This document shows, in pieces, positions 17,528 through 18,214 of a stretch of 64,000 bases of DNA (position 1 is its first letter; each line of letters begins with the position of its first letter). Both the position numbers and the translations under genes were made by a program. Location: assembly GCF_041248615.1 (NCBI RefSeq), contig NZ_CP158426.1; one strand, given 5' to 3'. This DNA comes from Escherichia coli. Lineage in GTDB: Bacteria > Pseudomonadota > Gammaproteobacteria > Enterobacterales > Enterobacteriaceae. A model generated the notes under the pieces. The model was not told the origin of the DNA, made no database searches, and saw nothing but the letters and a program-made list of their open reading frames with translations.

Positions 17528-17640
17528 AGTAAAACTCCTGAGCAGGCGGCACTATGCCGCTTTCATAGGAGTTCTGAATGCTGGTGCTTTCTGTATGGCA
17601 TAACCATGCCTCTAACGGTTAAGTGCCTGCAGCACATGTT
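17528..17640. repeat. Copy A of an approximately 110-bp direct repeat (ribosome-binding-site-sequestering hairpin element)
   Basis: aactcctgagcaggcggcactatgccgctttcataggagttctgaatgctggtgctttctgtatggc... is near-identical to 19352-19460; contains nested inverted repeats aactcct/aggagtt and gcggca/tgccgc. Confidence 0.7.
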
Positions 17641-17902
17641 GCGGATCATTGGCAATCGCTCGCAGCAAAGCCTTTGCAGGCCCAGTCGGTGAACGTCGCC
17701 CCTGCTCCCAGTTACGCAACGTGTCTACGCTTACGGAAATAAGTTCGGCAAATTTAGATTGTGACAACCCTGAAGCGCGGCGTATTTCTTTGATTTTCAT
17801 AGCATCAACTTCAAAAGTCCGTGAAGGGTGTCGCGTTCCTTCAATAATTTCATTCATCTGGGCCATGCTGTGAGTCAACCGCTCAAAAAGTGCCTTATCC
17901 AT
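17612..17902 (-). CDS. higA: HigA-2-like XRE-family HTH antitoxin
   Basis: 96 aa; C-terminal HTH (LSQSKFAELISVSVDTLRNWEQGRRSPTGPAKALLR); directly follows, and overlaps the stop of, the RelE/HigB-like toxin gene (toxin-first order, as in V. cholerae HigBA-2 from memory). Confidence 0.7.
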   Translation of the reverse strand: MDKALFERLTHSMAQMNEIIEGTRHPSRTFEVDAMKIKEIRRASGLSQSKFAELISVSVDTLRNWEQGRRSPTGPAKALLRAIANDPQHVLQALNR

Positions 17903-18214
17903 TTACCACCTCGTATTTAACAACCGGAGCATTGCTTTTTCCTGGGGAGACAGATCATCTTTAATACCCTTACGATAAATAAGCAGTAATCTGATCTCAT
18001 AATGTTTAACCTGATGAAAGTAAATAACCCTGACACCAGCACGTTTCCCCTTTCCTCCTGACACCCATCGAACCTTTCTTAACCCACCAGTTTCAGGTAT
18101 TACCTCACCATAGTCAGGATTCAAGGCCAGGAAAAACTGAAAACGACTGAATTCATCGTCGGTCAGCAGTTTTTGAACATCTTCAGTAAAAATTTCCGTT
18201 TCGATGAAGAGCAT
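17903..18214 (-). CDS. higB: HigB-2-like RelE/ParE-superfamily toxin
   Basis: 103 aa MLFIETEIFTEDVQKLLTDDEF...GGLRKVRWVSGGKGKRAGVRVIYF...; this pattern matches remembered HigB-2-type toxins; paired with a downstream HTH antitoxin. Confidence 0.7.
   Translation of the reverse strand: MLFIETEIFTEDVQKLLTDDEFSRFQFFLALNPDYGEVIPETGGLRKVRWVSGGKGKRAGVRVIYFHQVKHYEIRLLLIYRKGIKDDLSPQEKAMLRLLNTRW

Follow-up and report, generated by a model that had tools for sequence, protein, structure and literature searches.

Introduction

The closest described relative of the locus reported here is the HigB-2/HigA-2 toxin-antitoxin module of Vibrio cholerae (VCA0468/VCA0469; PDB 5JA8, 5JA9, 5JAA, 5J9I and 8A0X). Its toxin, VcHigB2, is an mRNase that depends on the ribosome. 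The active site is RelE-like, and has been described as almost identical to that of RelE itself; exchange of Arg51, Arg64, Tyr82 or Lys84 for alanine leaves the enzyme 170- to 3000-fold less active (Hadzi et al., 2017; PMC5416850). In the antitoxin, VcHigA2, a disordered N-terminal segment neutralises the toxin by folding on it, and the helix-turn-helix (HTH) domain that comes next mediates dimerisation and contact with DNA. The operator, TGTACGC-N5-GCGTACA, was established from footprints and from a crystal of the protein-DNA complex, and the residues that contact the bases are Arg68, Glu71, Asn72 and Arg77 (PMC11006873). We describe here a pair of genes of this kind, higB-2 and higA-2, in a 64,000-nucleotide stretch of the Escherichia coli chromosome (contig NZ_CP158426.1 of assembly GCF_041248615.1; hereafter the window) that covers the region from fdoGHI-fdhE to fabY. 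We put at roughly 0.9 the probability that the two genes form a chromosomal operon for a type II toxin-antitoxin system of the HigB-2/HigA-2 kind and are the E. coli orthologue of Salmonella sehCD.

In Salmonella, sehCD (STM4032.2N-STM4033; SL3979-SL3980) is listed as a higBA-type module, with STM4032 lying between it and a second module, sehAB. In strain SL1344 sehCD occupies positions 4263074-4263676 (603 bp); SehCD scored as a functional pair when expressed ectopically in S. Typhimurium, and SehC was found by proteomics at 12.3 kDa (Lobato-Marquez et al., 2015; PMC4366850). An earlier paper, the main description of the system but marked retracted, reports that SehD binds its own promoter with 10-fold autorepression and that the Salmonella seh promoters carry two palindromes over the -35 and/or -10 elements (PMC3868539); its data on regulation and phenotype call for caution. 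The family of the module is structurally characterised, the module is named in public databases and its Salmonella orthologue has been studied.

Two other groups of systems invite comparison. RelE/RelB of E. coli K-12 shares with our pair the RelE fold and the ribosome-dependent cleavage of mRNA in the A site that we predict here, but is encoded antitoxin-first and has a ribbon-helix-helix antitoxin; RelE gives template modelling (TM) scores of 0.5-0.58 and 10-12% identity to our toxin, and the acid/base pair is swapped (K/R in RelE, R/K in HigB-2). K-12 HigB/HigA (YgjN/YgjM) and Rts1 HigBA are toxin-first, have an HTH antitoxin and bear the 'Hig' name, but their toxins belong to another family (PF09907/PF05015) and lack the C-terminal helix alpha3.

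Results and discussion

Organization of the gene pair

The original prediction, made from the DNA alone, named a 103-residue toxin and a 96-residue antitoxin. Both open reading frames (ORFs) are present exactly where it placed them, on the minus strand, which it had left unstated (Table 1), and the toxin motif that it quoted, GGLRKVRWVSGGKGKRAGVRVIYF, lies in the 103-residue ORF. The stop and start codons, claimed to overlap, in fact abut: the toxin TAA (17905-17903) is followed directly by the antitoxin ATG (17902-17900), and in the Cronobacter orthologue the overlap is 1 nt. The junction GAGAGGTGGTA(A/G)ATG is kept in orthologous loci, and the whole module measures 603 bp. The 3 nt that separate the Shine-Dalgarno sequence of the antitoxin from its ATG are the toxin stop codon itself. 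No comparable Shine-Dalgarno sequence precedes the toxin gene, for which the best candidate is GGCG.

In its gene order and protein lengths the module resembles its V. cholerae counterpart, which is likewise toxin-first (toxin of 103 versus 110 residues, antitoxin of 96 versus 104). The V. cholerae module lies in the superintegron, whereas the E. coli module occupies a fixed chromosomal site beside fdhE.

Table 1. Features of the higBA-2 locus and its surroundings, in window coordinates
Feature	Position	Strand	Basis or remark
higB-2, toxin gene	17903..18214	-	ORF; 103 aa, 12.2 kDa, pI 9.3; RelE-fold
higA-2, antitoxin gene (RefSeq nadS)	17612..17902	-	ORF; 96 aa, 10.9 kDa
Antitoxin Shine-Dalgarno sequence GAGGTGG	17906..17912	-	within final toxin codons (..R-W)
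O1, predicted operator, perfect palindrome GTACGTCAATGACGTAC	18252..18268		inverted-repeat search; conservation
O2, possible second imperfect operator TAAGCCAATGGCGTA = TAAG-N7-CGTA	18220..18234	-	second conserved block of alignment A2
P1, candidate operon promoter	18234..18260	-	-35 ATGACG (18260..18255), 15-nt spacer, -10 TACTCT (18239..18234); alignment A2
P2, promoter-like site TTGTTA-16-TATAAT, 10 of 12	18216..18243	-	consensus scan, sole match
Cys-rich 70-aa ORF between antitoxin and yiiE	17315-17527	-	phrog_4499, E 1e-13
92-aa ORF between antitoxin and yiiE	16975-17253	-	no family match
HSL-family alpha/beta hydrolase (esterase), divergent from higB-2	18443-19351	+	NCBIfam best: LipP1, chloramphenicol hydrolase
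Continuous 614-aa ORF, TTG start, GC 35-44%	19520-21364	-	carries CKSAKDRT

The toxin resembles V. cholerae HigB-2 in sequence, fold and active site

When the toxin was compared with all PDB chains by phmmer, V. cholerae HigB-2 entries were the only matches (E 1.5e-19 to 1.5e-18), five of the chains lying between 1.5e-19 and 8.8e-19. The alignment with VcHigB2 is ungapped over residues 2-99, and 41 of the 98 positions are identical (42%). HMMER, run exhaustively over 1.84 billion cluster representatives, returned 3888 relatives at E ≤ 1e-3, and at least 1000 public contigs encode the identical protein. With these figures the observation lies far beyond chance.

The four residues whose exchange disables VcHigB2 (R51, R64, Y82 and K84) correspond in this alignment to R49, R62, Y80 and K82 and are all kept. 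Among 65 diverse full-length homologues (alignment A1) R49 is present in all 65, R62 and K82 in 64 each, and Y80 in 58, the rest having F at that position.

An AlphaFold2 model built from the 65-sequence alignment, with a predicted local distance difference test (pLDDT) score of 92.2 and a predicted TM score (pTM) of 0.85, has the order beta1-alpha1-alpha2-beta2-beta3-beta4-alpha3 (strands E2-5, E46-51, E60-68 and E73-81; helices H7-16, H19-31 and H90-102). The four-stranded antiparallel sheet, two N-terminal helices and long C-terminal alpha3 of the HigB-2 fold are thereby all represented. Searched against the PDB with Foldseek, the model returned HigB-2 chains as its top 11 matches (TM 0.75-0.87, root-mean-square deviation (rmsd) 1.5-3.6 Å), with the free HigB-2 structures at TM 0.85-0.87 and rmsd 1.5-2.1 Å; the next family, the RelE/PfiT-type toxins, reached a TM score of at most 0.58. 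A basic beta2-beta3 loop is a further likeness to VcHigB2: it reads SGGKGKRAG (residues 52-60) in our toxin and ASKGKGKRGGS in VcHigB2. It is the sole low-confidence block of the model (pLDDT about 70) and is disordered in HigB-2 crystal structures too.

Membership of the Rts1/K-12 HigB family (PF05015/PF09907) was rejected, as there was no Pfam match to it and Foldseek gave a TM score of 0.39 (E > 0.2) to 5IFG. The 'HigBA2' of Acinetobacter baumannii was not used as a relative, since its paper places it in the GP49-domain family.

HigA-2-like sequence and fold of the antitoxin

Pfam HTH_3 spans residues 37-74 of the 96-residue protein (1.9e-9), in agreement with the C-terminal XRE-type HTH that had been claimed for it. 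PDB chains of HigA-2 match residues 5-89 with E values of 8e-9 to 4e-8, and the NCBIfam model NadS (NF041265) matches the same residues at 60.4 bits (E 1.6e-16), a marginal score against a cutoff of 60. In an AlphaFold2 model, residues 1-30 have pLDDT values of 48-59 and contain a low-confidence helix at 3-20, and residues 34-94 form a five-helix domain (pLDDT 85-92). The top eight Foldseek matches are all HigA-2 chains (TMt 0.76-0.84, rmsd of the C-terminal domain 1.4-2.6 Å). A low-confidence N-terminus, predicted to be flexible, followed by an HTH domain is consistent with the architecture of VcHigA2. The recognition helix, SVSVDTLRNWEQGRR, is identical in the Enterobacteriaceae orthologues and carries one substitution, R63 to K, in Erwinia.

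A literature search on the origin of the name 'NadS' returned nothing relevant. We note that a PIRT-Seq paper lists a separate 'nadS' in BW25113 (RS26030), annotated by PGAP and not in EcoCyc, that is expressed under laboratory conditions.

Predicted operator and promoter DNA upstream of the toxin gene

The perfect palindrome O1 ends 37 nt upstream of the toxin ATG and is the sole occurrence of TACG-N7-CGTA in the window. It has the GTACG-N7-CGTAC layout of the VcHigA2 operator, with equal 7-nt spacing. We aligned the upstream DNA of nine loci from seven genera, six of Enterobacteriaceae plus Erwinia (alignment A2: E. coli, two Enterobacter, Cronobacter, Salmonella, two Citrobacter, Klebsiella spallanzanii and Erwinia typographi). 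TACG.CA.TGACGTA is invariant in this alignment, and conservation is absent from the DNA preceding the palindrome. O1 is the best-conserved intergenic block across the six enterobacterial genera. The outer base of the palindrome varies on both arms together (GTACG..CGTAC or ATACG..CGTAT).

The right arm of O1 holds a -35-like hexamer, ATGACG in E. coli and TTGACG in the other genera, which forms part of the candidate promoter P1. Its counterpart in Citrobacter, Enterobacter BIGb0383, Klebsiella and Salmonella is TTGACG-16-TA(A/C/T)TAT. It is plausible that P1 is the operon promoter, with an operator over its -35 element, although a consensus promoter scan did not report it. In Vibrio, by contrast, the operator spans from just after the -35 across the -10 element. 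A second difference is the imperfect site O2 near the E. coli start codon, between the -10-like element and the toxin ATG. The invariant A2 columns in this block are C101, A103, T105, G106, C108, G109, T110 and A111, and Erwinia typographi has a full palindrome, CTACGCCAATGACGTAC, at this position; we infer that O2 may act as an operator. The predicted E. coli layout agrees with the two-palindrome description of the Salmonella seh promoters given in the retracted paper.

The only site that the consensus scan did report, P2, is a strong match of the sigma-70 type. It was rejected as a conserved operon promoter, as its -10 element ends one base before the toxin ATG and the hexamer is not conserved: one Enterobacter locus (L006) has TATAAT as well, but it is not kept in the loci of Salmonella, Citrobacter portucalensis, Klebsiella and Cronobacter. 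A transcript from P2 would omit the toxin start codon and include the antitoxin gene with its Shine-Dalgarno sequence. That P2 makes an antitoxin-only transcript in E. coli is an idea we offer as a variant of the regulation discussed below. A search of positions 15600-21800 against Rfam found no RNA family.

Gene order, toxin fold, catalytic residues, antitoxin HTH and the operator-like palindrome all fit the HigB-2/HigA-2-type module of the original prediction, and we regard the family assignment as very likely correct.

Orthology with Salmonella sehCD

To judge from the sequences, the module is the orthologue of Salmonella sehCD, because the termini encoded by the published primers, the 603-bp length and the neighbourhood all agree. 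The sehCD primers encode MQFIETE.., ..MLNERW* and MDKVLFERL.., and these sequences agree with the ends of the toxin and the antitoxin in the Salmonella loci that we retrieved; the published primer table has its C and D labels interchanged. The placement of STM4032.2N-STM4033 fits the order hydrolase, higB-2, higA-2, fdhE found here, with the esterase STM4032 on one side and, as the gene numbering implies, fdhE on the other. SehC has also been reported to be 72% identical to an E. coli 'HigB'. Among the proteins compared, no Salmonella toxin had exactly the published SehC mass of 12,326 Da. The two loci differ in that S. Typhimurium carries sehAB beyond the esterase, a module absent here, whereas E. 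coli has yiiE/yiiF and two small ORFs between the antitoxin gene and fdhE.

Proposed working of the module

By homology with V. cholerae, a HigA-2 dimer would bind O1 and repress the operon, and would probably also bind the imperfect site near the start codon. Translation of the antitoxin from the strong Shine-Dalgarno sequence in the last toxin codons, set against the poor one of the toxin, could keep the antitoxin in excess; we infer that this difference affects the toxin:antitoxin ratio. The N-terminal segment of the antitoxin is expected to fold onto HigB-2, draw R62 from the active site and block ribosome binding. Were the antitoxin depleted, free HigB-2 would enter the ribosomal A site and cut translating mRNA within codons, and growth would halt. 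The toxin is accordingly a predicted ribosome-dependent mRNA endonuclease, by analogy with VcHigB2.

Distribution and genomic setting

The module is present in 2636 of 5426 complete E. coli genomes, where it is single-copy and always at least 95% identical. No diverged second copy was found in E. coli at the DNA level, there being one place per genome; an apparent signal of two places per record came from flanking sequence and was discarded. Wider relatives occur in 893 plasmid records and nine phage records.

The order esterase, higB-2, higA-2, fdhE recurs in Enterobacter, three Citrobacter species and Klebsiella spallanzanii. Salmonella has the same order with remnants of the esterase, seen as pseudogene fragments in the loci examined, and Cronobacter has it without the esterase. 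The original prediction placed the module inside an island. This holds relative to K-12 only, which lacks positions 16737-21269 of the window; the same fdhE-side position is occupied in five other genera. Because the module sits beside fdhE in six genera including E. coli, it is an old syntenic locus of the Enterobacteriaceae and not a recent island. K-12 keeps the first ~95 nt of the neighbouring 614-residue ORF, which points to deletion of the locus in K-12 rather than insertion here. The interval between fdhE and fabY is low in GC (35-47%, versus 52-57% in the flanks). The ribbon-helix-helix genes yiiE/yiiF, described in that prediction as adjacent, are separated from the module by ~1 kb and two small ORFs of 70 and 92 residues.

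Decay of the module and its probable function at native levels

Some observations weigh against our reading of the locus. Profile searches, proposed in the original prediction as a check on the toxin, bore it out in part: a toxin family, PF06296, was matched, but weakly (i-Evalue 0.0062, 17.2 bits, residues 43-101), and the protein was not assigned to any non-toxin family. The NCBIfam search of the toxin gave no model match. Of the four residues through which VcHigA2 contacts DNA, two are changed in our antitoxin (R68 to D60 and E71 to R63; N64 and R69 are kept), and the E. coli version of P1 is degraded in both hexamers and in its 15-nt spacer. The literature searched held no toxicity, neutralisation or RNA-cleavage data on the E. 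coli proteins, and their RefSeq protein accessions were found in no papers. Finally, deletion of the sehCD antitoxin was without growth phenotype in LB and in mice, and SehC slowed E. coli slightly (PMC3868539, retracted). Because this deletion was silent and the effect of SehC slight, toxicity at native levels may be low.

As regards the profiles, the PADLOC search of the toxin likewise gave no model match; the missing NCBIfam and PADLOC matches are not evidence against the family, since these libraries are without a model for it. Because the PF06296 match is weak, the assignment of the toxin rests on the PDB sequence and fold matches; several orthologues that are 70-73% identical do carry precomputed PF06296 matches.

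The pattern of decay bears on whether the toxin is active in the cell. The antitoxin gene accompanies the toxin gene in 2635 of the 2636 toxin-bearing E. coli genomes. In the lone exception, EC5931, the toxin has a +G frameshift, and an IS1-associated deletion has taken the antitoxin gene, yiiE and the two small ORFs. Because the antitoxin is almost never lost alone, the sole antitoxin-less genome has a frameshifted toxin, and the disruptions in E. coli, C. werkmanii and K. spallanzanii described below fall in the toxin, the population genetics fits a real toxin. We think it probable that the toxin is functional at native levels.

The same data can be read as attenuation or domestication, with a toxin ORF that is intact but harmless at native levels and a HigA-2/NadS repressor kept as an ordinary transcription factor. 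The antitoxin is better conserved across genera (79-86% identity within the Enterobacteriaceae, 74% in Erwinia) than the toxin (68-76%), and the toxin has been pseudogenised repeatedly beside an intact antitoxin: among the matches listed, other E. coli strains combine an intact nadS with a toxin gene broken by a +TT frameshift or by IS1, and the C. werkmanii and K. spallanzanii reference genomes have premature toxin stops. All disruptions seen in the E. coli, C. werkmanii and K. spallanzanii loci fall in the toxin. The weakened E. coli promoter, the want of a good toxin Shine-Dalgarno sequence and the silent Salmonella deletion of the retracted paper point the same way. We nonetheless consider domestication unlikely: all four catalytic residues are intact here, the toxin frame is open at 95% or greater DNA identity in most of the 2636 genomes, the one genome that lost the antitoxin has a dead toxin, and SehCD is functional on ectopic expression.

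In some Salmonella enterica loci the damage is found in the other gene. Several loci (L004, L005, L013 and L014) carry an early antitoxin frameshift (gene at about 3313-3600) beside an intact toxin; the product of 81-84 residues starts past the predicted neutralising helix, and the catalytic residues of the toxin are intact. Two further loci, L011 and L012, encode the full 96-residue antitoxin. Because these frameshifts coexist with an intact toxin, they argue that toxicity at native levels can be low.

The +G allele, which falls in the GGGG run of the toxin loop codons, occurs in 132 complete E. coli genomes (exact 61-mer), a lineage in which the frameshift is fixed.

A role mainly in abortive infection (anti-phage) or anti-plasmid defence, instead of stress response or genome stabilisation, appears improbable. 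A defence role of RelE/ParE-superfamily toxins has been discussed (PMC11980606), the families of the two proteins include members encoded by phages (phrog_5869 for the toxin, E 6e-27; phrog_2104 for the antitoxin, E 1.6e-25), and there are the plasmid and phage relatives counted above. PADLOC, however, matched no toxin model and gave generic helix-turn-helix matches only for the antitoxin, the locus lies outside any defence island, and its inheritance beside fdhE is syntenic and apparently vertical. That the toxin poisons gyrase as ParE does, or acts as an RNase without need of the ribosome, is hardly credible: the RelE/ParE superfamily is one fold whose activities Pfam separates poorly (PMC11980606) and ParE2 is among the weak fold matches (TM 0.45), but the nearest relative by far is HigB-2, shown to cleave mRNA on the ribosome, and the RNase set R/R/Y/K is conserved.

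Annotation and significance

For the HigB-2/HigA-2 operon that we favour, these findings have little import beyond annotation. Across thousands of E. coli genomes RefSeq names the intact toxin 'hypothetical protein' and the antitoxin 'nadS' or 'NadS family protein'. Other sources enter the identical toxin either as 'Toxin HigB-2' or under the name 'type II toxin-antitoxin system RelE/ParE family toxin'. With the current RefSeq labels the pair is easily missed in toxin-antitoxin censuses, which naming it higBA-2/sehCD would mend. The comparative result is incremental, namely an operator half-site and spacing shared from Vibrio to the Enterobacteriaceae and an fdhE site fixed in six genera. The patterns illustrate the vertical inheritance of a chromosomal toxin-antitoxin module and its erosion toxin-first.

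Neighbouring genes

The esterase gene lies beside the module in Enterobacter, Citrobacter and Klebsiella as well. Its NCBIfam scores are 235 bits for LipP1, under the cutoff of 350, and 163 bits for chloramphenicol hydrolase. Control of this divergent gene by HigA-2/NadS, beyond autoregulation, would explain why the antitoxin is retained and more highly conserved after decay of the toxin; we rate it a long shot.

The 70- and 92-residue ORFs also adjoin higA-2 in Klebsiella spallanzanii (66% and 59% identity), and because they are conserved there they are probably real genes.

The 614-residue ORF found no match in Pfam, NCBIfam, PHROGs or the PDB sequences, and in RefSeq it is divided between a 'transposase' and a 'hypothetical protein' marked pseudo. 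Its CKSAKDRT motif is similar to the phosphatase P-loop, CX5R, found in effectors of the SopB/IpgD type. At least 80% of the 10.3-kb region around this ORF is matched in about 300 E. coli genomes.

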